DNA from: an uncultured Gammaproteobacteria bacterium
GTDB lineage: Bacteria; Patescibacteriota; Patescibacteriia; Magasanikbacterales; UBA922
Assembly (NCBI GenBank): GCA_964565405.1
Contig: CAZMEW010000002.1
Span: 20,918 to 84,917, forward strand
Direction of reading: 5' to 3'
DNA: 64,000 nt
The notes below the pieces were generated by a model that was not told the origin of the DNA, ran no database searches, and was given only the letters and a program-made list of their open reading frames with translations. Shown one piece after another: positions 3,216-37,977 of this stretch (its first letter is position 1; each line of letters begins with the position of its first letter). Both the position numbers and the translations under genes were made by a program.

Positions 3216-4337
3216 TCAAGTTTTTTTAAATTTCCAAATTTCACGACCAACGAATTGATTTTCTCGATGGTAGAGCAGGGAGGTGTGGGTCGAGTCAAAG
3301 GGGATTATTTCAAATCCAAGTTTTTCTATTTCTTTTTCAGCACCAATCTTTATCCACTCTTTTTCAGATTTGAACATGGGTATGATAAAAATAACTACCG
3401 CCCCTGTATATAGGATAGTATTAAAACTGCAAAAACTTTTGGTATAGAGATCTTTGAGATCACGTGCCTGAGTCTGGAGTACGGGGTTACTTTCATGCCC
3501 ATGGAGTGGTTTGCCCATGTATGGCTCTGAGATAATCGCATGAATACTATCTTTTTTGAAAATATGTTCAAGTTTGGTGGCGGACGCAAGATGAATTGCG
3601 GTGTGAACTTTTTTTTCGGGGTTGTCTTTCAAAAACCAACCCACATTTGCAATAGAATCTTCCACTGCTTTGTCGGAATTATCTGATCCTGAAACATGTG
3701 TATATCCGAGCGATAATGCTTCGGTTAGAACCGTTCCAGAACCACAGAACGGATCGAGGATGGGGGCGTCGAGAGGGCTCTCCGAGAGATTCACCATGAT
3801 ACGAGCAAGTTTGGGAGGGAGCATGCCACTCCTGCTATCAGTGCGTGGCCGTTCATAATCACGTTTAGTAAAGGATTCAATATCTTGTACGGCAATAGTT
3901 ACAAACCACTCATTTCCAATATGGGTAATATCACCCTTTTTTTCAACCAAATTATTATGAATAATGGTTGCTGCATTCTTCGCCTCGATATATCGGACTG
4001 ATCTACCTTTTTGTTTTAGATATTTTTTTACTTCAAGTGCTAGGGATTTTGAACTAAAGCCGGTAAGCGAAAAATGAATTTTCCCTTCGTTGGTTTCTAG
4101 ATGCTTGGCAATAGTTAGAATATCAGTATCTTTTTGTTCAATTGCGCGCGCGATTTTAATGGTACCTCCCAAGATACGCATCAAATCATTCGCCGGTAGA
4201 GCGATTGAAGACTCGAGAATCAAGTGTGATACCGTGGTATTGATTTCTTGATATGGTAGTGATAGTCGGCGAAGTACAGATCGCACCTCAGCACACGAAA
4301 TGTGTGGCTGATGACCGAGTTCAAACGCGTATTTCAT
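3216..4337 (-). CDS. SAM-dependent RNA (guanine-N2 / adenine-N6 type) methyltransferase, THUMP-like N-terminus
   Basis: LDPFCGSGT SAM-binding motif. The overall architecture resembles Trm14/RlmL-type N2-G methylases. Confidence 0.65.
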   Translation of the reverse strand: MKYAFELGHQPHISCAEVRSVLRRLSLPYQEINTTVSHLILESSIALPANDLMRILGGTIKIARAIEQKDTDILTIAKHLETNEGKIHFSLTGFSSKSLALEVKKYLKQKGRSVRYIEAKNAATIIHNNLVEKKGDITHIGNEWFVTIAVQDIESFTKRDYERPRTDSRSGMLPPKLARIMVNLSESPLDAPILDPFCGSGTVLTEALSLGYTHVSGSDNSDKAVEDSIANVGWFLKDNPEKKVHTAIHLASATKLEHIFKKDSIHAIISEPYMGKPLHGHESNPVLQTQARDLKDLYTKSFCSFNTILYTGAVVIFIIPMFKSEKEWIKIGAEKEIEKLGFEIIPFDSTHTSLLYHRENQFVGREIWKFKKT

Positions 4338-4732
4338 AGAGAAGTGGAAGAAGAGGTTTCTGCAGAGCTCGAGGGCGTACTGGTGGTGCGCAAATCAAAA
4401 AGATTTGATTGTGTTGAGGTAATTGCACGGTCATAGAACGGATTTCGGGAATATGGTACAAATGTAAAATTTTGCTTTGCCTGGTCAATCGAGAGTATCT
4501 GTTCAAGAAGTTTAAAATTAATTGGAGCAACTCGGGCAGACATAGACTCGACTTGAAATATTGTTTCATAATGAGCAAGTCGATTGGACATGGTATATAC
4601 AATCCAGGTTGCATAACTTACCATAATGAGAGATAAGCAGGCAACCCCTATGGTAATAAATCTCAATATAGAAACATTCGCATATTCGGGGGGGATGGGA
4701 TTGTGGATTTTTTTGGGAGTAGTGGAAGTCAT
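4334..4732 (-). CDS. hypothetical membrane protein, last gene of the T4P assembly operon (PilP-like position)
   Basis: Single N-terminal TM segment and a Ser/Thr-rich tail. Its position directly after pilO is the basis for the call. Confidence 0.4.
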   Translation of the reverse strand: MTSTTPKKIHNPIPPEYANVSILRFITIGVACLSLIMVSYATWIVYTMSNRLAHYETIFQVESMSARVAPINFKLLEQILSIDQAKQNFTFVPYSRNPFYDRAITSTQSNLFDLRTTSTPSSSAETSSSTSL

Positions 4733-4734
4733 AC

Positions 4735-5283
4735 TTAGGATTCAATAAAACTATTCAAAGTCGCACTGAAATTAATGGTAACAAATTCACCTTCTAGGCT
4801 CGATGTTTTTTCGAGATCCAGTTTGCCAATATTCAAGTAATAGGGGATGGATTCGAGTTCAGCGAGATAACTCATGATATTTTCAAATACCCCGGTAGTC
4901 CTAAAAGAAAATAGATAATATCCACCAAAAGGACCGGCGGTTTCATATTCTTTGAAAGAAACAGAAAGTTCCTGTTGAACATTGTGCTTGTCTGCAATTA
5001 ATTCAATAAGACCGATCAATTTATTTTCTTCAGATCGCTCAGTCGCGATACGGTCAGTTTTTGATAACTCTTCTCTTACGGTCTTAATCTCGCTAAGCGA
5101 TCGACGCAAAAGGCGGACACGTTCAAATTCGGCATTTTCTGATTGTACTTGCGCAACCATGGCGTTTGTTGTGTCAGTAATTGACTTGAGTGATGGGCGT
5201 ATCAATAACATTATTATTACAATGCTAAGAGATGCAAAGAATAGTATGGTAATAACGAGTTTGTGTGTAATAGTGAAACGCAT
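4735..5283 (-). CDS. pilO: type IV pilus assembly protein PilO-like
   Basis: N-terminal TM segment plus a coiled-coil, about 180 aa, in the pilM-N-O order. Confidence 0.55.
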   Translation of the reverse strand: MRFTITHKLVITILFFASLSIVIIMLLIRPSLKSITDTTNAMVAQVQSENAEFERVRLLRRSLSEIKTVREELSKTDRIATERSEENKLIGLIELIADKHNVQQELSVSFKEYETAGPFGGYYLFSFRTTGVFENIMSYLAELESIPYYLNIGKLDLEKTSSLEGEFVTINFSATLNSFIES

Positions 5284-5286
5284 AGA

Positions 5287-5817
5287 TTATTTGAGTATCG
5301 CGGTGATCGTAAAAGGAATATTTTCTTTTCGGGTGAGTTCTCCCTCAGGTATGGTTACTGCTTCAAGGGAGGGCAAACTTTTTACCGCCTTCTCACAGCG
5401 TGCAAGTGTGTCACGATTCTCGGCAACTCCAGCAAGAGAAAATGTGTGTGAATCGCGATCAAAGATGACCGAACTTACCTCAACACCTTCAGGAAGTATA
5501 TTGAAAATTTCATGAATTCGAGGTGACCAGAGGATAAATTGTTTTTGTATTTCGTCTACAGTCTGGATTTGATTATTAATATCAACGATGTGTTTTGTAT
5601 CCGTATGATACGAATTTTTTTGAGAAAGCATACTCACGGTGAGTGCTGCCTGGTAATTGATAAAAAAACTCTGAGCAATAAGTAGAATTGCTGCGAGAAT
5701 TGCAACAATTGAAAAAACTAATGCGCATGAAGTCTTGAGGTAAGTAAAAAGTGCAAGTCTTTTTAAATGCGTCTTTTTGGTATCTGATAATACGTTGATT
5801 CTGACTGGAAACATCAT
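5287..5817 (-). CDS. pilN: type IV pilus assembly protein PilN-like
   Basis: Bitopic protein with N-terminal TM segment, 176 aa, directly downstream of pilM. Confidence 0.55.
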   Translation of the reverse strand: MMFPVRINVLSDTKKTHLKRLALFTYLKTSCALVFSIVAILAAILLIAQSFFINYQAALTVSMLSQKNSYHTDTKHIVDINNQIQTVDEIQKQFILWSPRIHEIFNILPEGVEVSSVIFDRDSHTFSLAGVAENRDTLARCEKAVKSLPSLEAVTIPEGELTRKENIPFTITAILK

Positions 5818-27825: not shown

Positions 27826-27900
27826 GGTGGCTATGGTGTAGTGGTAACACAGAGGTTTGTGGTACCTTTATCACGGGTTCGATCCCCGTTAGCCACCCCC
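27826..27900 (+). tRNA. tRNA-His (anticodon GTG) with encoded G-1
   Basis: G-1, acceptor stem GTGGCTA/TAGCCAC, D-arm GTGT..ACAC, anticodon loop TTGTGGT, T-arm ACGGG TTCGATC CCCGT, discriminator C. Confidence 0.8.
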
Positions 27901-27931
27901 ACCGGGATTTTTCTTTTTTAAAAGTTTTTTT

Positions 27932-28972
27932 ATGTCCTCTCAAATCATTATAAAAAACTCAGACCAACACTATCTAAAAACAGAGAAGTTTATTAGTGAA
28001 TGCGAGAAACGGTGTTTACGAACAGTCAATAAGGAATTGCTAAAGAAACTCAAAGAACTTGATTTGATTAATCCTATATTTACCTCAAAAGAAGGTGATT
28101 TTTATGATTTGTATCAACTCCTGGAAGTTAGTTTTATCGTCAAAAAATGTAAACTTACAGACTTAGAGAAAGAAAAGGTGCAAATTTTAGAAGAGCTGGG
28201 ACCGATAAAACGGATATTACCTTTACTTCAAGACATACGTTATTTTTATCAGCCGGAACTCTATGGACAAATTAGCAGCGGAGTCTTGCCGCCTGATGAG
28301 TTTGAGATAGAACCTTTTCAGGACGTTCTACGTAGTTATGAAAAGAATCTAAAAAGTTTTAAACCAACTGAATATATTAAAAAACATGGATTTGATAAAG
28401 AAGAGATTAAAGAAATCAGAGATTCAATTTTTATAAGAGCACATTGGTTTGACCCGATGCAGGATTGGTACGCGTTTTTAAGAACCATAAGAACTAAGGA
28501 TTACAGTAACTATTTTAAAAAGATAAAAGGAGACGTGCTACTTGCCCATGACTATTATATTGTTGCAGAGTTGTTGACGTTTCTTTATCGAGATTCTTTT
28601 AATGATTCAATCCTAGACCCGGAAGATATTATTGATGGAACAGGTGGCAAATGGAAAGAGGGGGAATGTGCTAATTGCGGTAAGAAAATTAAAAAGATAA
28701 ATTTTAGGCACCGATATTGTTACGAATGTAAGATAAACGAAAAAGAAACCAGAATAGATTTTCATCATTGTTGTAAATGTAATGAAGTATTATTACGATA
28801 CATCGATGGGAATATGGTATTTGAAAAAATAAGTACGCACAGTAAAGCAAAGAAGGGTACGTTAACAAAGCCTATTCAAATATCCCTAGAGTATGGAAAG
28901 ATGCACATAGAGGTAATATGTGCTGATTGTGACCAAATTAATCATATTCCACTTAGCAGCGGATGGTTCTAA
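27932..28972 (+). CDS. hypothetical protein with a C-terminal multi-Cys zinc-ribbon (island cargo)
   Basis: AT-rich ORF. C-terminal motifs CANCGKK...CYECK...HHCCKCN...CADCDQ. Confidence 0.5.
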   Translation: MSSQIIIKNSDQHYLKTEKFISECEKRCLRTVNKELLKKLKELDLINPIFTSKEGDFYDLYQLLEVSFIVKKCKLTDLEKEKVQILEELGPIKRILPLLQDIRYFYQPELYGQISSGVLPPDEFEIEPFQDVLRSYEKNLKSFKPTEYIKKHGFDKEEIKEIRDSIFIRAHWFDPMQDWYAFLRTIRTKDYSNYFKKIKGDVLLAHDYYIVAELLTFLYRDSFNDSILDPEDIIDGTGGKWKEGECANCGKKIKKINFRHRYCYECKINEKETRIDFHHCCKCNEVLLRYIDGNMVFEKISTHSKAKKGTLTKPIQISLEYGKMHIEVICADCDQINHIPLSSGWF

Positions 28973-29219
28973 ATTGACAGGGAATACATAGATGATATAA
29001 TACAATTGTTCATTTAAAACTACAGTCATCCGTGAGGTGACCAGTTCGGACAATGAAGGGCCGGACAACTAACTGATTCATCAGTCTTTTTAAGACGCGA
29101 GGAAAAAGTGGTTGTTCGGCTTTTTTATTTTACAACCTCTTTGACCTTCTAATTAAGCGAGCTCGAATCAAGCTCGTTTTTTGTTAGCATGAATAAAGAG
29201 AGAAATAAAAAAATGCATA

Positions 29220-30557
29220 GTGAGAAAAATAAAATCATTGCTACACAAATTGCACAATTTTTGTTTTCTATTTGGGAAAAAGAACTATTACATAACGGCA
29301 ATCAAGCTGCCGCCTCAAAGTCAGGTTTTCCGAGAGATTATCCTGGCAATGGGACGGCAACTTGATAGTCGACCAAAATCTCTCGGTATGGTCGACACAA
29401 TACGTCTTAAAATAGAGTCTTTTAATGCCCTAGATATGGGCTATTTTAACGAAGTACGAAAAAGAAGCGCAACCGATGAGATGAGAAATATAACCAAACA
29501 AATAACACGTACGAATAATAAATTTAGAAAACATAGACAAGATAAGGGGCTATATACTCCTAAATTTCAGATTGAAGAAAATTACTATGGGACAATAATG
29601 AAGAAAACACTTGTATTGGAATTGTCCTTGCCAAAATTTGTTTTTGGAACAAATCTACATGAGCTTACTCAAGCGGATTGGCTTGATACAGTACAAAAAC
29701 TCCTCTTCTTTTTAAAAGAAATAAAAGTTGAAGTATTTGAACAAGATATTATGCAGGCAATTGTAACAAGTATATCTTATTCAAGAAATTTAGATATAAC
29801 TGAAATCTGTACTGGTCAGCAAGCAATACGTCATCTTGCGCCATTTAATTATCGTCCGAGGTCTGATTATAATTATGTAATTCGTGAGCAAAAAAATGGT
29901 GGATCATATATTAAATACTTCAATAATTGCACATCCCTGATAATTTACGATAAATTACCTGAAATTGCGTACAATCCGGTAACCGCGATTGAAAAGGAAA
30001 TTGCAGAAATATGGAAAAGGCGAAGGGCAGGAGAATTTCCACAACGTGTGAAGGAGTATATTAGAGTGGAGGTAAGTTTACAGGACAAGGTGTCAATTAA
30101 ACAGGCAGTTCGTTCGGTAAATGGTCTAATACAAAATTCATTTACATTTAAAGAACTTTTTAATCAAGAACTAAGTAATCAGATTCTTCGCAAAGAGATT
30201 GATAGCGTTTTTAATCATTCATTACAAAAACCTATTCTACTATCTACCTATGACAGACCAACTGTACAGGCTTTACTGACTAAAAAGTTTCCTAGATTTA
30301 ATGAACGAATGAAAGTCGCAGGTTTTGTTGAAAAGTTACGGATTGAAAATATGGGGTTAAAAGAGCTCCGTAAGACTATGATAGATGGTTCCTGTGAACG
30401 AACTTGGTTTCGTTGGCAGAAAAAACTTAAAGAGCTTTTCGACGACATAGAACTCCGAGATTTAAAAATTTCAGAAACTCTCAGATCGGCTGATATTTTG
30501 AACTTTATTTTGAAAGAATTTAATTTAAAAGATAAAAAACAGCTATCACTTTTCTAG
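29220..30557 (+). CDS. hypothetical protein, possible mobile-element replication-initiation protein
   Basis: GTG start at 29220 per the ORF track; the internal ATG at 29349 (MGRQLDSRPKSLGMVDTIRLKIESF) is the more likely start. No confident family match from sequence alone. Context is a recombinase-bearing island. Confidence 0.4.
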   Translation: MRKIKSLLHKLHNFCFLFGKKNYYITAIKLPPQSQVFREIILAMGRQLDSRPKSLGMVDTIRLKIESFNALDMGYFNEVRKRSATDEMRNITKQITRTNNKFRKHRQDKGLYTPKFQIEENYYGTIMKKTLVLELSLPKFVFGTNLHELTQADWLDTVQKLLFFLKEIKVEVFEQDIMQAIVTSISYSRNLDITEICTGQQAIRHLAPFNYRPRSDYNYVIREQKNGGSYIKYFNNCTSLIIYDKLPEIAYNPVTAIEKEIAEIWKRRRAGEFPQRVKEYIRVEVSLQDKVSIKQAVRSVNGLIQNSFTFKELFNQELSNQILRKEIDSVFNHSLQKPILLSTYDRPTVQALLTKKFPRFNERMKVAGFVEKLRIENMGLKELRKTMIDGSCERTWFRWQKKLKELFDDIELRDLKISETLRSADILNFILKEFNLKDKKQLSLF

Positions 30558-30558
30558 T

Positions 30559-32121
30559 TTAGTTTTCTTCCTTCAGATTTGCAAAATACTCTCTTGCTTT
30601 CAGATTTATATAGTAATCACAATAGAGTTTCATAGCTATAACCTCAGTTAGGGTTATAGGGTGACTTTTCTCATGTTTTACATCAGCTTGAAGTGCGGTA
30701 GCAAGAGTTAAAGTTTTATCTAAATCCTTCATTTCTCCAATTTTACTAAGTTGTTTTTTGATAACTTCTCTAAAATCACTTATACCATCCCAATCGCCAA
30801 AGATAATCGTAGCGTTTTTGAGAGCTTTGTAAAAACTGTCAAATGCATTTGCCTCAAGTTGTAAGTGTATGTCAACTTTGCTGAAACAAGTGAGCCCCAT
30901 AGCATACTCTTTCAAAAAACTCTCTAGTTTTTTAGATTCCATCATGAAAAACGTAATAATATCGTAGGTTTTTCTTGCCGCGTTTTGGTCAAGTACTAGT
31001 CTTGCTTCATCAAAACCCACATGCAATCGTTTATGAGGTGAAACGACCAATTTTACACCACCGTTTGGGTCAGCTTCAAGATCAACAATATCTACATAAT
31101 AAGTGGATATATCCTTCTGTACATTCCACCAAAAAATACCTAAAGTCCCAACATTAAATGCGAGCACCACTGTCTTTGCCATAAAGAAACCGTGCTCCCA
31201 TACATAACTAGTATGAAGACCTTTCGGTAACGTAAGATCGATAAGAAGCTCGCCTTTTGTGAGTTTATTAGGGTCTTTACGGTTAGACTTATAGATCTTT
31301 ATACCCTCAACACCTTTATTCCAATCGGCAAACGCGTTATTCCGGATCGTATGAGAGGGGGTTTGGATTCGGATACGCATTCTATATTTTGGTGCGAAGG
31401 CTTCTTCACCTTCTGGCTTTTCCCGTTGCATTTCTTTCTGGGCATATTCTCGCATCGCAATCTCATTTTGACGATAGACTTCATGTAACCATTTAATCCA
31501 TTCCTTACCGTTTCCAAGTTCACCTAGTTTTTTTAAAGATAAGGGACCAAATATCTGTTTACGATACTCAGTATCTTCTGCTGCAGAAAAAAACCATATA
31601 ATTTCCTCAATATCACCATTTTCAAATGGTTTCAATTCAGTTGTCTTCTCAATTTCAAGTCGCGTACGTGTCAATCCAATAATCATCCGTGCTTCATCTT
31701 CCTTAACTCGCTTATTTATTGGTAAGGGATTTTGAGGATCTGTATAAAGCGACTCAAGTCGTCGCTCATGCAGATTGAGTGCTAAATGACGAGTTTTTTC
31801 AATGATTTCTTTTGTGAATTTTACATCGCGTAATATGTCTGCACCCCATATCGCCCAAAAAAGTTTTTTAACATGATCATCCATCGCACCTACAAGCTCT
31901 TCTCTTTCGGGGCGCATAGCAAAGCTCATATAGTTGATTGTTGACAATATAGATTTACCAATTTCTTCTAGTGCTAAAAGAGCAAGATGGAAACAAATGT
32001 GGTCTGCATTTTTTCCAATCTCATTTTCGGCCATGGACAGGAGTGCTTCTGCATTTGCAAGACACATTTCTCGCATTATTTTAAGTTTTTCATATTTTTC
32101 TTCGTGTTTCATAAATTTCAT
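30559..32121 (-). CDS. AbiV/HEPN-like N-terminal domain fused to a large unknown C-terminal domain (candidate abortive-infection / defence protein)
   Basis: N-terminal NAEALLSMAENEIGKNADHICFHLALLALEEIGKSIL resembles the AbiV-type HEPN helix pair. Total length is about 520 aa, against about 200 aa for AbiV. Confidence 0.45.
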   Translation of the reverse strand: MKFMKHEEKYEKLKIMREMCLANAEALLSMAENEIGKNADHICFHLALLALEEIGKSILSTINYMSFAMRPEREELVGAMDDHVKKLFWAIWGADILRDVKFTKEIIEKTRHLALNLHERRLESLYTDPQNPLPINKRVKEDEARMIIGLTRTRLEIEKTTELKPFENGDIEEIIWFFSAAEDTEYRKQIFGPLSLKKLGELGNGKEWIKWLHEVYRQNEIAMREYAQKEMQREKPEGEEAFAPKYRMRIRIQTPSHTIRNNAFADWNKGVEGIKIYKSNRKDPNKLTKGELLIDLTLPKGLHTSYVWEHGFFMAKTVVLAFNVGTLGIFWWNVQKDISTYYVDIVDLEADPNGGVKLVVSPHKRLHVGFDEARLVLDQNAARKTYDIITFFMMESKKLESFLKEYAMGLTCFSKVDIHLQLEANAFDSFYKALKNATIIFGDWDGISDFREVIKKQLSKIGEMKDLDKTLTLATALQADVKHEKSHPITLTEVIAMKLYCDYYINLKAREYFANLKEEN

Positions 32122-32199
32122 CAAGATGTATAAATTGAAGTACACGAAATATAACAAAACTTGCTAAATTGAGCAAAAATGGTAGTATATTCATGTCTG

Positions 32200-32362
32200 C
32201 CTACAATTTCACCGAGAGTTTATTTTTTTAAAGGACTATTAAGACTGTCTTGTCTTATCCGTTTTATTGCGGATAAAGATGGGCAGTCAACCTCCACAAA
32301 ACGGAAAGTCCTTGGACTCTCTGTGAATAGTGGGCAGACCGGTTTGGCTGCCCTTTTTTGTT
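32200..32362 (+). ncRNA. candidate structured small RNA / leader ending in an intrinsic terminator
   Basis: Nested complementary segments (AAGGACT...AGTCCTT; CCGTTTT...AAAACGG) and a terminal GGGCAGACC(ggttt)GGCTGCCC hairpin followed by TTTTTT. No ORF is present. Confidence 0.25.
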
Positions 32363-32390
32363 TTTATATTTAATTCTTCACTTTTCCGAT

Positions 32391-33116
32391 ATGGATAAAC
32401 CACAAGCTAACCACTCGCCGAAGAAACCATTTTATAAAACATGGTGGTTCGGTGTTATCATTCTTGGATGTATCATAGTTTCATTCAGTTCAAACTCTTC
32501 TAACGATAACATTTCGACTCAGCCGCCCGTACACCAACCTAATACACCAGTTGAGCAGACTGTCGTACCCACCGTAACCGATAAAACCCCCGCTAAAACA
32601 ACAGTAACACCCGCAGCCAAGAAAGACGAGCCTGTTACCGATGTAACCGCCCAGACAACCCAAAATACAGACCCTCAAAACCAGACAGGTTCAAACGTCT
32701 ACGATCAGATACGAAAAAGAGCACAGGAGAAATGGCCGAACGACCCTGACATGCAAGAATACACGTACGATAATCAAAAGGCTGCATACGAACAATTTTC
32801 ACTGATTACCGCGTATCCCAATATCAAAGCTCAAGCGGTTTCGAAGTGGCCGACGGACTACGAAATGCAAGTCTATATGTATAATGAACAAAAAACGGCA
32901 TATGAGCGAATGGAGATGATCACCAAATACCCGGAAATAAAAACATATGCCCAAAACAAATGGCCAACTGATTACAGTATGCAGGTCTACACCTATGATA
33001 ATCAGGTTACCGCTTATGAAACTATGCTTAATTATCCCAACAGTCCTAAAAAATCTGCCGCTCAGCGCAAATGGCCAAAAGACTATGAGATGCAGGTGTA
33101 TGAATATCAAAATTAG
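32391..33116 (+). CDS. membrane-anchored protein with 3.5 tandem ~37-aa repeats (KWP.DY.MQVY.Y...AYE)
   Basis: TM segment WWFGVIILGCIIVSF, then a Thr/Pro-rich linker, then repeats KWPNDPDMQEYTYDNQKAAYEQ / KWPTDYEMQVYMYNEQKTAYER / KWPTDYSMQVYTYDNQVTAYET / KWPKDYEMQVYEYQN. Confidence 0.55.
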   Translation: MDKPQANHSPKKPFYKTWWFGVIILGCIIVSFSSNSSNDNISTQPPVHQPNTPVEQTVVPTVTDKTPAKTTVTPAAKKDEPVTDVTAQTTQNTDPQNQTGSNVYDQIRKRAQEKWPNDPDMQEYTYDNQKAAYEQFSLITAYPNIKAQAVSKWPTDYEMQVYMYNEQKTAYERMEMITKYPEIKTYAQNKWPTDYSMQVYTYDNQVTAYETMLNYPNSPKKSAAQRKWPKDYEMQVYEYQN

Positions 33117-33303
33117 CTATCTTTTTGATTAGGTAGCACCTCCTCTCGTTTACTCTCCAATTGTCCCGCTTCAAGCATCATCGCTACATCAATAGGTGCT
33201 CGTACTTCGTGAGTAGTTCTTCATACTCATATGAGCTAATTCTAGCCTTGACAACAAGGATTTTTTGTGTTATTATCTCATGTTCCAAAACAGAGGAGGA
33301 TTC

Positions 33304-34002
33304 ATGGAACAACGAGTGATGAAGTACACGGAATGGGTAGGTTATTTTGAGGGGTGGGCTCAGCTAAAACTCCGCGGCCAGACATCCGATTCTCCGGGCA
33401 TCATCCCTCGGTGGACTGAGACTCGTGAGATTCGGGTGATGTGGGAAGAGGGCATCACTGATGACACGGGCGAGTTCGTAGTTCGAGAAATCGCGCAATG
33501 GATTCGTGAGCTTTGTCTCGGTCTTGAGTTCACCGTGGTGCCGTATGGCACCGGATGGCGTGAAGCAGGACGGCGCGTCAGCGTCACCGACTACATCCGC
33601 CCCGCACTGCTTCCGAGCGGTGTCGACTATGAACAGCTTTTTCGGCTGTCGTACCATGAGCCGTATCGACGTGTGCACCAACACGCAGACGTCTACATCA
33701 TGAAACGACCGTTTCATGATGACACGGTTTCGTGGGGATGCTCGATCTTCGAGTACGGTTGTCTACTATTGACGCTTCACGGCGGTCGACAGAACAACCG
33801 GGATTTCTTGCGCGGCGTGGTACGCCATGAACTCGGCCATCTCTTCGGGATGCCGATTCACTGTGACCATGTCGGTGTCGAAGGATGGGCCTACGACTCA
33901 TCCTGCAACATGCACTACGCGGTACCGTCTTCCAGACTGTGTCCGAAGTGTCGCTCTCTCCTTCATCTCTGGTGGCAGCACATCAAAGCTGCTCTCCGAT
34001 GA
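33304..34002 (+). CDS. archaemetzincin-like zinc metalloprotease (peptidase M54-like) in a GC-rich patch
   Basis: HELGHLFGMPIHCDH followed by C...CPKC, the archaemetzincin HExxHxxGxxHC + Cys4 signature. Local GC is markedly above the flanks. Confidence 0.55.
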   Translation: MEQRVMKYTEWVGYFEGWAQLKLRGQTSDSPGIIPRWTETREIRVMWEEGITDDTGEFVVREIAQWIRELCLGLEFTVVPYGTGWREAGRRVSVTDYIRPALLPSGVDYEQLFRLSYHEPYRRVHQHADVYIMKRPFHDDTVSWGCSIFEYGCLLLTLHGGRQNNRDFLRGVVRHELGHLFGMPIHCDHVGVEGWAYDSSCNMHYAVPSSRLCPKCRSLLHLWWQHIKAALR

Positions 34003-34250: not shown

Positions 34251-35849
34251 ATGTCTAAAGAAAAAATCTCTCAAGCAACACTATCTAGGGCAGCTGCATA
34301 TATTCGAGAGAGTACCGAGGAACAGGATAAGGGATACTCACCGGATAACCAAAAAGAGACTATTTTAAGGTATGCCAGACAAAATGGGATTGAGGTAGTA
34401 GAGTGGTACAAGGACCTATTTACTGGGCGTAGTGCAGAAAAAAGAATTGATTTTCAACGAATGATTGCAGACGCAATGATGAAGAAATTTGACGTTATTT
34501 TGATATTTCATAGCTCTCGATTTGCACGAAATGTAGAAGAGTCACAGCAGTATAAAAAGTTACTGCGTAATAAATTAGGAATTAATGTTGTTTCGGTAAC
34601 ACAAAATTTTGGTGACCCTGACGATCCCGGCTCCTTCCTTAATGAAGGAATAAACGAATTGTTTGATGAACATGTATCGAGGAATATCGGTTTCTGGGTT
34701 GGTACGAGTTTAATGGCAAAACGACAAAAGGGTTATCAATTAGGAAATCCACCGCTTGGGTATTACAAAAAGAAGATAGGGTATGATAAAGAAAGAGATC
34801 GGGTGATGTATGAAGGGGTGTGGCGTGTAGAAACAGACGAAGCAAAGCTCGTAAACCAGATTTTCAATTTGTATATCGGAGGAAACATGTCCTTTGCTGA
34901 TATAGCGGCAGAGTTAAATAAAAATGGTGGTAAAACAAAACATGGACATCCTTTCACCTATAGCTCAATTAAAGATACGTTAAATAATCGTTCATATCTT
35001 GGTTACACATATTCTCCCCGTAGAAACTACCCAGAATTACGAGCGAAACATAAGCCAATTATAACTGAAGAGTTATTTAATAAGGCACAGGAAGTGCTCA
35101 ACGACCGTAGACGTTCGAAGGGTCGTTCAACTGCAAAACATAGGTTCTATTTTTTGCAGAGTTTAGTGTTTTGTTACGGTTGCTATAAGCATTTGAAAGG
35201 AAAAGAAAATAATCCATCGGCCCGGCTTTTGCCAAAAATGTACTGTGTCACACAGCCTTCAGATGGTAAGGAGTACTACAGTTATGCCTGTAAATATCGT
35301 CGTGAGAATCATAGCTGTAAGCAGAAGAGTGTTAAATGCGAGACGATTGATGATGAGGTTAGTACGTATTTAGAAGGCTTTACACTGCCTAAAGATGTTA
35401 TCGAGGATACCATCTCACAGGTACGGGAGATGATTCAGTCTGCAAAAAAGACGCCTGATATGGTAGGGCGCATCAAACGCTTGGAAGAAAAGAAGAAGAA
35501 AATTGAATTTATATTCACTAATACGTCAGAATTGAGTGAGGAACAATACTTAGGTAAGTTAGAGGAGGTGAATATCGAATTAAATAAGTATTCTCAATTC
35601 GACCGGGTAGCAAGTAATGCACGGCGTGAAGAAGAATTCATTAAAAAAACCGAGCGTTTGCTCGGGGATTTCAAATCTCTGTGGGATACGTTTGATAAGG
35701 TTGAACGACGAAGGTGGGCAATGATGACGTTGAGGCGTGTGTGGGTAAAAGATGGAAAAGTCTATGCAATCGAACCGCAAGAGGAGTATAAGCCATTATT
35801 TGTTGCACATAGGGAAGTCTTGGGTCGAGCGGAATTGAACCCGTGCTAG
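34251..35849 (+). CDS. large serine recombinase (resolvase catalytic domain + recombinase domain + zinc ribbon + coiled-coil)
   Basis: N-terminal AAYIRESTEEQ with catalytic Ser, Cys cluster CYGCYKH...C..C, 532 aa. Confidence 0.85.
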   Translation: MSKEKISQATLSRAAAYIRESTEEQDKGYSPDNQKETILRYARQNGIEVVEWYKDLFTGRSAEKRIDFQRMIADAMMKKFDVILIFHSSRFARNVEESQQYKKLLRNKLGINVVSVTQNFGDPDDPGSFLNEGINELFDEHVSRNIGFWVGTSLMAKRQKGYQLGNPPLGYYKKKIGYDKERDRVMYEGVWRVETDEAKLVNQIFNLYIGGNMSFADIAAELNKNGGKTKHGHPFTYSSIKDTLNNRSYLGYTYSPRRNYPELRAKHKPIITEELFNKAQEVLNDRRRSKGRSTAKHRFYFLQSLVFCYGCYKHLKGKENNPSARLLPKMYCVTQPSDGKEYYSYACKYRRENHSCKQKSVKCETIDDEVSTYLEGFTLPKDVIEDTISQVREMIQSAKKTPDMVGRIKRLEEKKKKIEFIFTNTSELSEEQYLGKLEEVNIELNKYSQFDRVASNARREEEFIKKTERLLGDFKSLWDTFDKVERRRWAMMTLRRVWVKDGKVYAIEPQEEYKPLFVAHREVLGRAELNPC

Positions 35850-35895
35850 GAGAGCCACAATCTCCTGTGCTACCATTACACCATAGCCACCCCTA
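35830..35895 (-). pseudogene. truncated tRNA-His-like fragment (5' about 60 nt only), inverted relative to the intact tRNA-His, overlapping the recombinase 3' end
   Basis: The reverse complement reads G-GTGGCTATGGTGTAATGGTAGCACAGGAGATTGTGGCTCTCCTAGCACGGGTTCAATTCC and then diverges (GCTCGACCCA), so the T-stem 3' half and the acceptor 3' strand are missing. It is about 80% identical to tRNA-His at 27826. Confidence 0.55.
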
Positions 35896-36022: not shown

Positions 36023-36754
36023 TTAACCTTTCTTCTCGAATGATCGAAGAACTTCAAGTGGGACTGCAAATATTATTGTGTTGGATTGATCAGAGCTCAC
36101 GTCATTGATCGTACTCAATGTTCGAAGATGTAGAGCTCCAGGGCTACTAGAAAGCATTGCAGCGGCTTTGGAGATATTTTCTGCGGCTGCGATTTCTCCT
36201 TCTGCCTTGATAATGACAGCCCGTTTCTCACGCTCAGCTTCTGCCTGTTTTGCGATCACACGCTGCATGTCATCAGGGAGGGTAATATCTTTTAGTTCAA
36301 CGGTTTCAACCTTGATACCCCAGACATCGGTCGCGACATCGATCAGCTCTTTAATTTTTTTTGCAGCTTCCTCACGATTTGCTAAAAGCTGGTCAAGTTC
36401 AAGTTGTCCGACCACATTTCGCATGGTGGTCTGTGCAAGCTGGGAAACAGCAAACCAGAAATTTTCTACTTCAAGCACGGCTTTTGCAGCGTCGGCTACG
36501 CGGTAATAAATAACAGCATTAATTTTTGCAGACACATTATCCTTGGTTATTGCCTCTTGATAAGGCACATCCACTGCTTTGGTACGGATATCTACTTTCT
36601 GCATACTCTGGATAACCGGGAAAACAAGTCTCCACCCTGGTTCAACGATTTTCGTATACTTACCCAACTGAAATTTGACCCCACGTTGGTATTGGTTTAC
36701 CTGGCGAATACTGATAAACACAAGGAACACTGCGATCGCTATGAGTACCCACAT
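36023..36754 (-). CDS. SPFH/band-7 (stomatin/HflC-like) membrane protein
   Basis: N-terminal TM segment plus SPFH core (YQRGVKFQLGKY...) and a coiled-coil. Confidence 0.8.
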   Translation of the reverse strand: MWVLIAIAVFLVFISIRQVNQYQRGVKFQLGKYTKIVEPGWRLVFPVIQSMQKVDIRTKAVDVPYQEAITKDNVSAKINAVIYYRVADAAKAVLEVENFWFAVSQLAQTTMRNVVGQLELDQLLANREEAAKKIKELIDVATDVWGIKVETVELKDITLPDDMQRVIAKQAEAEREKRAVIIKAEGEIAAAENISKAAAMLSSSPGALHLRTLSTINDVSSDQSNTIIFAVPLEVLRSFEKKG

Positions 36755-36862
36755 ATTGAGTTACATAAGAATTATACGGATAGTATTGCGTAATCAGGCC
36801 ATAATTGCAAGAGAGTGGTTGTCATAACAAAAATCCGCTTTTAATGACGGATTTTGTATATG

Positions 36863-36934
36863 TGAGCCCAGCAGGAATCGAACCTGCGTATCCAGCTTAG
36901 AAGGCTAGTGTTCTATCCACTGAACTATGGGCTC
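36863..36934 (-). tRNA. tRNA-Arg (anticodon TCT)
   Basis: Reverse complement GAGCCCA TA GTTC AGTGGATA GAAC A CTAGC CTTCTAA GCTGG ATAC GCAGG TTCGATT CCTGC TGGGCTC A. Confidence 0.8.
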
Positions 36935-36972
36935 ATGGATGTGGGAGAGTGTAATCGTAAATCGACCATTTG

Positions 36973-37977
36973 TCAATCATCCTTTCGCTTCTTACCATGG
37001 AATTTTTTGTGTATATTCAGCAATTCTTTGTCAGTAATATGGGTATAAATTTGGGTCGTGGTAATAGATGCATGTCCCAACATTGATTGGACGCTACGAA
37101 TATCAGCACCATTTTGTAGCAGGTCAGTTGCGTATGAATGGCGAAGCGTATGGGGTGTAACTGACTTAGTAATTCCAGCCTCACGTGCGTGTTTTTGTAC
37201 AATACGCTGTACTGAGCGTGTACTGAGCGGTTCGTCGTACCCGTCTTTGGATTTATTTGTTGCAATTTCTTGTTTTTTACTTCGCTTATCATGTGAAACA
37301 AAGAGATACGAATGGATATCATTTCGGGCGTCTAGATATTTTTTGAGCCAGTATTTTGCCTGTTCTGAGATAAAAACTACGCGGGTTTTGCGTCCCTTAC
37401 CCGTAACCCTAAATTCATCACGCGTAAGGTTGACATCATCTTTTTTTAGTTTCACGAGTTCTGATACGCGAAGACCTGTAGAAAATAACAGCTCGAGAAT
37501 TGATTTATCTCGATAGGCAATGAGCAGTGTTGGTCCTGCCGAAATCTTTTTCCCCTCCGCCTCGAGTTTTTTAGTGTTGATATTTTTAAGGGGGGCTTCA
37601 AGGATTCGATTAAGATCGCTTCCATCGAGAAAAGATACCTCCCGATCAGGCATCTTCATGAGCTCTATTTTTTCTGCGGGGAGTGTCGGGACGTCTCGTT
37701 TAGCCAAATATTTAAGAAACGTGCGAAGTGCGATCAGATGATAGTTCTGGGTATTCTTTTTGAGTGGTTCACCGTGTACATCAATAAGACGATTAAGCCA
37801 CAATCGAAATTGGCGAACATCTTCGTAGGTGAGGTCAGATGGTTTTTTGTTCGGACCAAACCACTCAACGAAACGTTTAAGATAAAAATCGTAGTTTTTG
37901 GTGGTTTTGTCACTTCGATTCTTCTCAATTTCAAGATGTTCGAGAAAATCAGTTTTGTATTGTGACAATGTTTGCAT
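36973..37977 (-). CDS. xerD: tyrosine recombinase XerC/XerD family
   Basis: HTLRHSYATDLL...GADIRSVQSMLGHASITTTQIYTH with the catalytic Tyr. Confidence 0.8.
   Translation of the reverse strand: MQTLSQYKTDFLEHLEIEKNRSDKTTKNYDFYLKRFVEWFGPNKKPSDLTYEDVRQFRLWLNRLIDVHGEPLKKNTQNYHLIALRTFLKYLAKRDVPTLPAEKIELMKMPDREVSFLDGSDLNRILEAPLKNINTKKLEAEGKKISAGPTLLIAYRDKSILELLFSTGLRVSELVKLKKDDVNLTRDEFRVTGKGRKTRVVFISEQAKYWLKKYLDARNDIHSYLFVSHDKRSKKQEIATNKSKDGYDEPLSTRSVQRIVQKHAREAGITKSVTPHTLRHSYATDLLQNGADIRSVQSMLGHASITTTQIYTHITDKELLNIHKKFHGKKRKDD

Follow-up and report, generated by a model that had tools for sequence, protein, structure and literature searches.

The 64,000-nucleotide stretch of DNA analysed here (the window) encodes, on its minus strand, a long member of the AbiV family in which an N-terminal HEPN domain of AbiV type is joined to a C-terminal module of ~370 residues that is outside any described family. 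This pairing is a stable family architecture, not a one-off fusion: a profile search with the C-module returned 687 cluster representatives, and the module starts at about residue 130–150 in every full-length protein among the 150 matches listed. The long AbiV variant is probably a self-contained toxin or defence gene; by analogy with AbiV of Lactococcus, its product probably acts as a self-regulated RNase toxin. The gene and the parts of its product are as follows.

30559..32121, minus strand: long AbiV-family gene, 520 residues from an ATG (ORF list)
31642..32106, minus strand: AbiV-type HEPN domain, residues ~6–160 (Pfam, NCBIfam, model and Foldseek)
31873..31875, minus strand: codon of invariant H83, the predicted AbiV-type 'alternative' catalytic histidine, in the helix-2/helix-3 insert
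31744..31770, minus strand: H118-E-R-R121-x4-Y126, end of HEPN helix 3 (conservation)
31393..31641, minus strand: helical linker, residues 161–243 (model and conservation)
31072..31392, minus strand: α/β module, residues 244–350, modelled with β-α-β-β-α-β (ferredoxin-like) topology
30562..31071, minus strand: variable loop (351–378) and C-terminal helical bundle (379–520) (conservation and model)

An alternative upstream TTG start at 32157 would extend the gene to 30559..32157 (minus strand; 532 residues), and an NCBI protein 100% identical to the window protein starts at the ATG at 32112 (517 residues). A promoter scan returned a site count no higher than in shuffled sequence. In an AlphaFold (AF2) model of the full 520-residue protein (pLDDT 85.6), the HEPN domain is followed by a linker of helices, then by an α/β module with a ferredoxin-like fold and finally by a bundle of helices. 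Across the family, only residues 61–80, 351–378 and 446–488 are variable.

PF18728 (HEPN_AbiV) covers residues 16–148 with 41.5 bits (cut-off 27.1; E = 2e-10), and TIGR04498 covers residues 18–146 with 36.4 bits (cut-off 27); since both exceed their cut-offs and PF18728 is matched by 89/89 aligned homologs, the resemblance to AbiV is not due to chance. In a Foldseek search with the full model, the N-terminal domain was matched best by AF0298-like HEPN-T and sacsin HEPN structures (2hsb, 3o10 and 1ufb; probability 0.99–1.0, sequence identity 14–17%), and the AbiV crystal structure 9bj7 was matched with probability 0.93–0.94 and TMt 0.50–0.56. The E-values are weak (0.05–0.5) because the search used the whole 520-residue protein as query. 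The HEPN matches vanish when residues 137–520 are searched alone, and therefore derive from the N-terminal domain. Curated HMM cut-offs and fold thus bear out the AbiV/HEPN-like N-terminus of the original prediction, and the motif quoted for it is present, with NAEALL beginning at residue 23 and HLALLALEEIGKSIL at 45. The helix pair of ~120 residues described there is indeed an AbiV-type HEPN, but in size and shape it is a four-helix unit of ~150 residues (modelled helices at 6–34, 40–69, 104–125 and 141–160, with an insert at 70–103).

Conserved residues of the HEPN domain comprise E52, E53, G55, K56, D82, H83, K86, H118, R121 and Y126; E52, G55, H83, K86, H118 and Y126 are invariant across the homolog alignment, E53 and R121 are each conserved in at least 90% of sequences, and K56 in at least 70%. 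Both AbiV and AF0298 have an alternative conserved histidine in place of the canonical Rx4-6H motif (PMC3710099), and the residues reported for AbiV are E67/K70 and R91/H97 (bioRxiv 10.1101/2024.05.05.592566). Judged by motif and spacing, the helix-2 E-E-x-G-K dimerisation motif is kept and corresponds to the E67/K70 dimer interface of AbiV. By its spacing from E53/K56, H83 appears equivalent to H97, which likewise lies in the flexible helix-2/3 insert. Unlike in AbiV, the R91-type arginine 4–6 residues before the histidine is missing from the window protein, and the segment preceding H83 is acidic whereas the corresponding AbiV segment is basic. R121-x4-Y126 occupies the canonical Rx4-6H position, with tyrosine replacing histidine. 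The original prediction had looked to a conserved Rx4-6H motif in an alignment of homologs; an arginine 4–6 residues before H83 occurs in only 5/89 sequences and is lacking in 84/89, and it is the AbiV-type alternative histidine that is conserved. The pairing of an alternative histidine in the insert (here H83) with a basic residue where the Rx4-6H motif has degenerated (here R121) is the one described for such HEPN domains (PMC3710099).

The C-terminal ~370 residues match nothing in Pfam, NCBIfam, PADLOC, PHROGs or BFVD, in agreement with the earlier view that this region has no recognisable family, and searches of the PDB by phmmer and by profile found no meaningful sequence relative. Its parts are nonetheless conserved. 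The linker has W176/F177, S195, W208, W211 and E230, and the α/β module K245, S256, H257, N268, G328, F330, W331, W332 and D347, of which H257 and D347 are invariant; by mean pairwise identity the α/β module and the HEPN core are equally conserved (0.45 and 0.42, respectively). The bundle carries Y406, K415-x-D417-x-H419-x-R-x-E423 and ITLTE..K498..CD502, with residues 446–488 forming a variable patch. In Foldseek, the α/β module gives only weak PII/S6-like matches (probability 0.15–0.33), and the sole non-trivial PDB fold match of the bundle is to the HepT HEPN toxin 7ae6 (probability 0.63, TM 0.38). The possibility that the bundle is an internal duplicate of the N-terminal HEPN was rejected at the sequence level, as hhalign (local, with sub-alignments) gave a probability of at most 0.5% for all pairs. 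A second HEPN domain in the chain would bring the protein close to the two-HEPN single-chain nucleases (Cas13-like logic). With an α/β module as conserved as the HEPN core and with H257, D347, D417 and H419 of its own, the C-module is more suggestive of an enzyme's active site or a site for a conserved ligand than of a fast-evolving phage sensor. We tentatively suggest, as one possible reading, that the C-module is an undescribed domain pair, an α/β domain and perhaps a degenerate-HEPN bundle, whose His/Asp site acts as a sensor (for a ligand, an RNA or a phage factor) and so gates the AbiV-type RNase in cis.

The protein could also be read the other way round, with the C-module as the catalytic unit of an enzyme that is not necessarily defensive and the HEPN domain as a non-nuclease that binds substrate or nucleotide or mediates dimerisation. 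HEPN domains do serve as helical binding or dimerisation domains in the kanamycin and lincosamide nucleotidyltransferases. We consider this arrangement rather unlikely here. Inspection of the alignment shows no nucleotidyltransferase signature in the C-module (no G[SG] and DxD in the strands where they would be expected), and Foldseek found no nucleotidyltransferase fold match for residues 137–520. The invariant H83, K86, H118 and Y126, together with R121, lie at predicted AbiV-type active-site positions (PMC3710099), and the sporadic distribution of the family and its fusions to HTH antitoxin domains fit a toxin better.

At least 188 homologs were found; the full-length ones are mostly ~500–550 residues long, a few being longer through N-terminal fusions, and some carry antitoxin-type Xre HTH domains (PF13744/PF13443) fused at the N-terminus. 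The 102 confirmed matches in 185,579 species genomes are distributed among more than 10 phyla. The family occurs chiefly in uncultivated lineages (Patescibacteria, Poribacteria, Acidobacteriota and Bacteroidota), of whose defence repertoires little is known, and the closest homologs of the window protein are in Saccharibacteria and Paceibacterota MAGs, both Patescibacteria. Homologs already carry the label 'AbiV family abortive infection protein' at NCBI and JGI, although this leaves two thirds of the protein unaccounted for, and PADLOC overlooks the family (no PADLOC-DB 2.0 protein family matched the window protein at E ≤ 1). The novelty originally claimed therefore holds for the architecture, which is undescribed, but not for the proteins themselves, hundreds of full-length homologs having been labelled as AbiV family.

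The family is mostly chromosomal and strongly conserved along its whole sequence, and some of its neighbours are related to translation (ribosomal protein S9, EF-Tu, an rRNA/protein methyltransferase), as might be expected if the protein were a housekeeping factor that processes RNA or associates with the ribosome in Patescibacteria and other lineages. A role of this kind is nevertheless highly improbable, given that only about 100 of the species genomes searched contain the gene, that homologs of 70–78% identity have wholly different neighbours, that one copy is truncated, and that the window gene lies within a low-GC island. Uniformly housekeeping homologs, which the original prediction had named as evidence against itself, were not seen; the homologs are sporadic accessory genes.

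The island is ~8 kb long and is delimited by, or contains, the following features besides the long AbiV-family gene.

27826..27901, plus strand: tRNA-His(GTG), left island edge (ARAGORN; Rfam, 61.9 bits)
27932..34002, plus strand: span of four other island ORFs (27932–28972, 29220–30557, 32358–33116 and 33265–34002)
34251..35849, plus strand: large serine recombinase with Resolvase and Recombinase domains (Pfam), Ccr/XisF-like (NCBIfam)
35821..35890, minus strand: diverged inverted tRNA-His-like copy, right island edge (Rfam tRNA, 31.8 bits; alignments)

As had been noted at the outset, the gene is antisense to the rest of the island, being the sole minus-strand gene among the four ORFs and the recombinase gene. 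GC content is 0.351 for 27902–32357 against 0.409 for the window. The right-hand tRNA-His-like copy is identical to tRNA-His at 54/70 nucleotides and has the same anticodon loop with a degenerate acceptor stem; it overlaps the 3′ end of the recombinase gene and is not called by ARAGORN. No convincing flanking direct repeats (att sites) were found, the boundary signal being instead this inverted copy. The serine recombinase is likely the mobility gene of the island. The four other ORFs have no confident family and no meaningful PADLOC match; they never recur beside homologs elsewhere, and are therefore not partners of the gene. Nor was a conserved partner found when the three neighbours on either side in 80 loci, and small upstream same-strand ORFs, were clustered, no family extending beyond 6 loci.

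This setting raises the question of whether the protein works as an addiction module of toxin type, stabilising the integrated element or chromosomal region that carries it, with no anti-phage role. The recombinase on the window's island, large, unrelated serine recombinases within 8 kb of the gene in 10/80 loci, and transposases flanking some homolog copies would all suit such a module, as would the Xre-HTH fusions in some homologs, which are typical of toxin–antitoxin autoregulation. We still regard it as distinctly unlikely: about 85% of loci have no recombinase within 8 kb, tblastn found no copy in 72,556 plasmids, a frequent location of addiction modules, and AbiV, the experimentally studied family member, is an anti-phage system.

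A defence role, as originally predicted, is one that we infer. PADLOC recognises none, tblastn against 50,697 phages gave no match, as for plasmids, and defence or mobility genes (recombinases, methylases, one prophage) are a minority among the neighbours, most of which are not defence genes. In IMG/VR there is a single locus, a viral contig on which the gene occupies a moron position next to a baseplate gene.

AbiV is among the few Abi systems whose mechanism has been worked out: it is an rRNA-degrading HEPN RNase, and an RNA antitoxin restrains it. In Lactococcus this antitoxin, abiV2, is essential, ~170 nt long and located directly upstream of AbiV1. AbiV of Lactococcus cremoris (AbiV1 + abiV2; 9bj7) falls in the same HEPN subfamily as the window protein by PF18728/TIGR04498 cut-offs and by fold, and an RNA-targeting, toxin-like role is presumed for the latter by analogy. 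It differs in being a single-domain protein of 201 residues (bioRxiv 10.1101/2024.05.05.592566) that lacks the 370-residue C-module; the window protein is ~2.6 times as long, close to the ~2.5 times first estimated. It also differs in that the long family occurs mostly in uncultivated lineages, is not represented in plasmid or phage collections and is missed by PADLOC models, and in that no conserved upstream element resembling abiV2 was seen for the long family, as judged from sequence alone. In the window, the sequence gives no sign of an abiV2-like RNA or type III repeat antitoxin: the 236 nt upstream of the gene contain no Rfam match, tandem repeat or significant structure; a plus-strand hairpin with a T-run at ~32332–32365 is not significant (z = -1.24). 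The upstream gap is shorter than 100 nt in 39/79 loci, and no conservation of upstream DNA was seen among the closest homologs.

The long form thus keeps the AbiV-type HEPN core, and a fused conserved module apparently replaces the separate RNA partner. The reading that we favour, and to which we give an even chance, is that the gene encodes a single-polypeptide AbiV variant, an HEPN RNase toxin regulated in cis by its C-module, for abortive infection and/or element stabilisation. The HEPN domain would dimerise and act as an endoribonuclease toxin, as Lactococcus AbiV does, on rRNA or another abundant RNA, leading to translation arrest. The C-module would fill the role that the separate abiV2 RNA has in Lactococcus, restraining the RNase in cis until a trigger, which may be a phage factor, a small ligand or an RNA, binds at the conserved His/Asp site and releases it; abortive infection, stabilisation of the carrier element, or both would follow. 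In favour of this reading are the HMM and fold matches, the conserved residues of AbiV type, the constant fusion to the C-module, the lack of a conserved partner gene or upstream element, the Xre HTH fusions, the recombinases near some loci, the viral copy and the sporadic distribution; against it are the absence of the canonical Rx4-6H motif, the acidic segment before H83, the lack of matches in PADLOC and in the plasmid and phage collections, the mostly non-defence neighbours and the strong conservation of the C-module. If the C-module is a regulator or sensor, it represents a new way to control an HEPN toxin and a new domain for defence-finder models. If the gating reading is true, the family would be an abortive-infection system that is widespread, works as a single chain and needs no antitoxin, and the genome-reduced Patescibacteria would have in it one of their few recognisable innate defences.

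Other known systems share parts of this arrangement. The AF0298-like and sacsin HEPN proteins resemble the window protein in their fold and, for AF0298, in the alternative conserved histidine, but are ~130-residue single-domain proteins or have unrelated architectures, and none has the C-module. CapRel(SJ46), for which PMC13064643 cites Zhang et al. 2022, is analogous in concept only, as a fused single-chain toxin and regulator: its C-terminal domain reportedly auto-inhibits the N-terminal toxin, and binding of a phage protein lifts the block. Its fold and chemistry are unrelated, and its sensor is hypervariable whereas most of the long family's C-module is strongly conserved. In HepT-MNT (7ae6), an HEPN RNase toxin is held inactive by a dedicated partner, as we propose for the window protein; here, in contrast, the partner is fused, its α/β module has neither the signature nor the fold of a nucleotidyltransferase, and the HepT match is weak. 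HepT is regulated by AMPylation of a tyrosine next to its Rx4H motif; more speculatively, the invariant tyrosine of R121-x4-Y126 may parallel that residue.

The originally predicted minus-strand ORF at 30559–32121 is confirmed; it is intact and opens with ATG to encode 520 residues; a TTG start further upstream, at 32157, would give 532, and the otherwise identical NCBI protein (P0001) begins three residues later, with 517. The motif quoted for its N-terminus (NAEALL...) lies at residues 23–59. The proposed resemblance to AbiV/HEPN proteins holds: residues 16–148 match the Pfam family HEPN_AbiV (PF18728; E = 2e-10, 41.5 bits, gathering score 27.1), residues 18–146 match NCBIfam TIGR04498 ‘AbiV family abortive infection protein’ (36.4 bits, cut-off 27), and all 89 of 89 aligned homologs match PF18728 (best E-value 1.2e-18). 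An AlphaFold2 model of the full-length protein, built on the alignment of these homologs, has a mean pLDDT of 85.6 and a pTM of 0.67, and every PDB entry that Foldseek matches to it with high probability is a HEPN domain: AF0298 (2hsb, probability 1.0), the sacsin HEPN domain (3o10, chains A and C, 0.99–1.0), TT1696 (1ufb, 0.99) and the crystal structure of Lactococcus AbiV (9bj7, 0.93–0.94). These matches are lost with residues 137–520 alone as the query, and therefore belong to the N-terminal domain, which is very probably a member of the AbiV family.

The canonical HEPN RNase motif, Rx4–6H, which the original prediction proposed to seek in a homolog alignment, is not conserved; an arginine stands 4–6 residues before the conserved histidine (H83) in only 5 of 89 sequences, and the segment preceding H83 is acidic. 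This absence is a known AbiV peculiarity: according to Anantharaman et al. (PMC3710099), AbiV and AF0298-like HEPN domains are without the canonical histidine and carry another, strongly conserved histidine in the helix-2/helix-3 insert, a possible partner for the basic residue that the degenerate motif retains. In the long-AbiV family (an AbiV-type HEPN domain followed by a ~370-residue C-module), H83 lies in this insert and is invariant, as are K86 and H118, whilst the end of helix 3 carries R121 (conservation of at least 90%), followed by an invariant tyrosine (R121-x4-Y126). The AbiV authors name E67 and K70 as the most conserved dimer-interface residues (bioRxiv 10.1101/2024.05.05.592566). 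Judged by spacing, not by direct alignment, the helix-2 motif E52-E53-x-G55-K56 would correspond to this pair and H83 to AbiV H97, since each histidine follows the glutamate by 30 residues. With H83, K86, H118, R121, Y126 and the helix-2 motif all conserved, the N-terminal domain is therefore a genuine HEPN of the AbiV type, in which the putative active-site residues of the family are preserved.

The C-terminal 370 residues match no Pfam, NCBIfam, PADLOC or PHROG family and have no sequence relative in the PDB, in line with the claim that this region belongs to no recognisable family; taken whole, the module is undescribed. The full-length model and one built for residues 137–520 only (pLDDT 77.5) divide it into the same three parts:

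Residues 161–243, helical linker, with no fold evidence
Residues 244–350, α/β module of β-α-β-β-α-β order (ferredoxin-like), with weak PII/S6-like matches (probability 0.15–0.33)
Residues 379–520, helical bundle, best match the HepT HEPN toxin 7ae6 (probability 0.63, TM 0.38)

With the weak HepT match on one side and a negative profile–profile test for internal HEPN duplication on the other, a second, degenerate HEPN in the bundle is possible but unproven. Across 38 sequences, non-redundant at 60% identity, mean pairwise identity is 0.45 in the α/β module and 0.42 in the HEPN core, with variable patches limited to residues 61–80, 351–378 and 446–488. Near-invariant polar residues occur in both the α/β module (K245, S256, H257, N268 and D347) and the bundle (K415, D417, H419, E423, K498 and D502). 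As read from the alignment, this pattern argues for a putative defined catalytic or ligand-binding site in the C-module rather than a rapidly evolving sensor surface. The main alternative, in which the HEPN serves for binding or dimerisation without catalysis and the enzyme is the C-module, draws on these same residues; it has to be set beside the intact putative active site of the HEPN, and we consider it unlikely. Were the C-module to prove a new regulatory or enzymatic domain, the significance of the family would be greater.

A word-indexed search returned at least 188 homologs, the full-length ones mostly of ~500–550 residues with PF18728. A profile of just the C-module matched 687 of 1.84 billion cluster representatives at E ≤ 1e-3, and 541 of these at E ≤ 1e-10. 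Among the 150 listed, every full-length match has the module beginning around residue 120–170 (mostly 130–150) of a ~510-residue protein, so the C-module, by this sequence measure, travels with the AbiV HEPN; the shorter entries listed are apparently fragments, and N-terminal fusions account for the few longer ones. The family combines conserved putative active-site and dimer residues with an obligate fusion of the HEPN to a conserved, novel module. Extra N-terminal domains (a Xre-type HTH, PF13744/PF13443; DUF4926, PF16277; or a ~250-residue α/β-hydrolase) occur in some homologs (P0084, P0093, P0095, P0119; P0094, P0100, P0105; P0111, L026, L034). N-terminal Xre-type HTH fusions are typical of toxin–antitoxin autoregulation. 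The claim of novelty stands for the architecture, on which a literature search found no paper and which PADLOC, run as a check, missed; it does not stand for the gene, of which databases hold hundreds of copies auto-labelled AbiV, several of them entered at NCBI or JGI as ‘AbiV family abortive infection protein’.

Scanning one genome for each of 185,579 species gave 102 confirmed loci, the closest (73–78% identity) in Saccharibacteria and Paceibacterota MAGs (Patescibacteria), with others in Poribacteria, Acidobacteriota, Bacteroidota, Nitrospirota, Planctomycetota, Verrucomicrobiota, Chloroflexota and further phyla; the distribution is sporadic and HGT-like. The family was not found in 72,556 plasmids or 50,697 phage genomes, and occurs once in 2.9 million viral contigs (IMG/VR UViG_3300046478_000055, 4096–5634, antisense to its neighbours). 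That copy lies between a lipase-like gene cluster and two unannotated proteins of 1242 and 701 residues followed by a Baseplate_J gene, a typical moron-like position in a tail module, near baseplate and tail-fibre-sized genes. On a Saccharibacteria contig (L020, 8001–8645), only the C-terminal part of a homolog is present (residues 306–520, 80% identity); as it lies far from either contig end, it may be a copy that was truncated or has decayed.

No neighbour family occurs in more than 6 of 80 homolog loci, no small upstream ORF family was found at the loci, and none of the window's island ORFs recurs beside homologs. The 128 immediate neighbours include DNA methyltransferases (3), PD-(D/E)xK nucleases (2), a CHAT protease (1), a KAP NTPase (1), DDE transposases (2), resolvases (2) and LexA repressors (4), the remainder including housekeeping genes; 10/80 loci have an unrelated large serine recombinase no more than 8 kb away. 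Long-AbiV is a standalone gene of sporadic distribution, sometimes linked to mobile elements. An element-addiction role, for which the recombinases have to be weighed against the lack of any copy in the plasmids, is improbable; a housekeeping role in RNA processing, with housekeeping genes among the neighbours on one side and the sporadic distribution on the other, is very improbable indeed.

Lactococcus AbiV is an rRNA-degrading RNase held back by the RNA antitoxin abiV2 (bioRxiv 10.1101/2024.05.05.592566; PMC13064643). The long-AbiV protein departs from that system in size, which is not ~200 residues, and probably also in the conserved upstream RNA partner: the upstream gap of homologs has a median of 100 nt (below 100 nt in 39/79 loci), and no alignment is seen between the window and its closest homologs in the DNA upstream of the gene. 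On sequence evidence, the family is therefore unlikely to share a conserved ~170-nt abiV2-like RNA. Homology with Lactococcus AbiV suggests that the HEPN domain would dimerise and cleave RNA, arresting translation, and that the fused C-module would stand in for the RNA antitoxin, regulating the domain in cis by auto-inhibition and by sensing a trigger. By this analogy we regard an RNase-toxin or defence function as an even proposition, and the cis-regulatory role of the C-module as a tentative suggestion.

In four Patescibacteria loci (L004, L005, L018 and L022) a divergent LexA-like repressor gene (LexA_DNA_bind and Peptidase_S24) lies ~60–80 bp upstream of the homolog, in L018 also with a DNA methylase-like C-terminal part; this could reflect SOS-linked regulation or merely local synteny. 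Just upstream of the start in the Patescibacteria loci L004, L006 and L018 (upstream-DNA alignment A5, columns ~385–415) is the motif ‘AATCAA..(N)..TTATCCACAC’, which may be a promoter or operator element and is not found in the window.

Around the gene, the features of the window are:

27826–27901 (+), tRNA-His, left edge of the island
32358–33116 (+), 252-residue ORF with a hydrophobic segment at its N-terminus, oriented divergently to the long-AbiV gene
33265–34002 (+), 245-residue ORF with a local GC spike (0.51 vs ~0.40)
34251–35849 (+), large serine recombinase, Ccr/XisF type
35821–35890 (−), diverged inverted tRNA-His copy, overlapping the 3′ end of the recombinase gene
36862–36934 (−), tRNA-Arg(TCT), past the right edge
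36973–37977 (−), tyrosine recombinase, XerC/phage-integrase type, adjoining tRNA-Arg(TCT)

The real tRNA-His and its inverted copy bracket a low-GC island of ~8 kb (GC 0.351 for 27902–32357 vs 0.409 for the whole window). It holds four ORFs without confident family, the recombinase and the long-AbiV gene, which is, as predicted, antisense to the rest: it is the sole minus-strand gene beside the ORFs at 27932–28972, 29220–30557, 32358–33116, 33265–34002 and 34251–35849. The inverted copy is identical to tRNA-His at 54/70 nt and shares its GTG anticodon loop, and its acceptor stem is degenerate; the Rfam tRNA model gives it 31.8 bits, and ARAGORN does not call it. An att relic would usually be a direct copy, not an inverted one, and no flanking direct repeats were found. 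The island reading, with boundaries at ~27.9 and 35.9 kb, is reasonable; the segment is not otherwise recognisable as a defence island. The 252-residue ORF has four tandem ~25-residue repeats (‘KWP.D..MQ.Y.Y..Q..AYE’) and a weak match to PHROG 4980 ‘superinfection exclusion’ (E = 1.8e-6); the 245-residue ORF has a HELGH zinc-metalloprotease-like motif and a sub-threshold archaemetzincin match (E = 0.0085), with no Pfam family matched. On the strand opposite to the long-AbiV gene, upstream of its start, a GC-rich hairpin (GGGCAGACC...GGCUGCCC, then UUUUUUGUUUUU; 32332–32365, +) looks like an intrinsic terminator of a plus-strand transcript; its folding falls short of significance (z = −1.24), and homolog loci do not conserve it. 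The stretch just past the right edge (36023–37977) also holds a minus-strand SPFH/Band-7 gene; in it the second recombinase, beside tRNA-Arg, may mark another integration hotspot.
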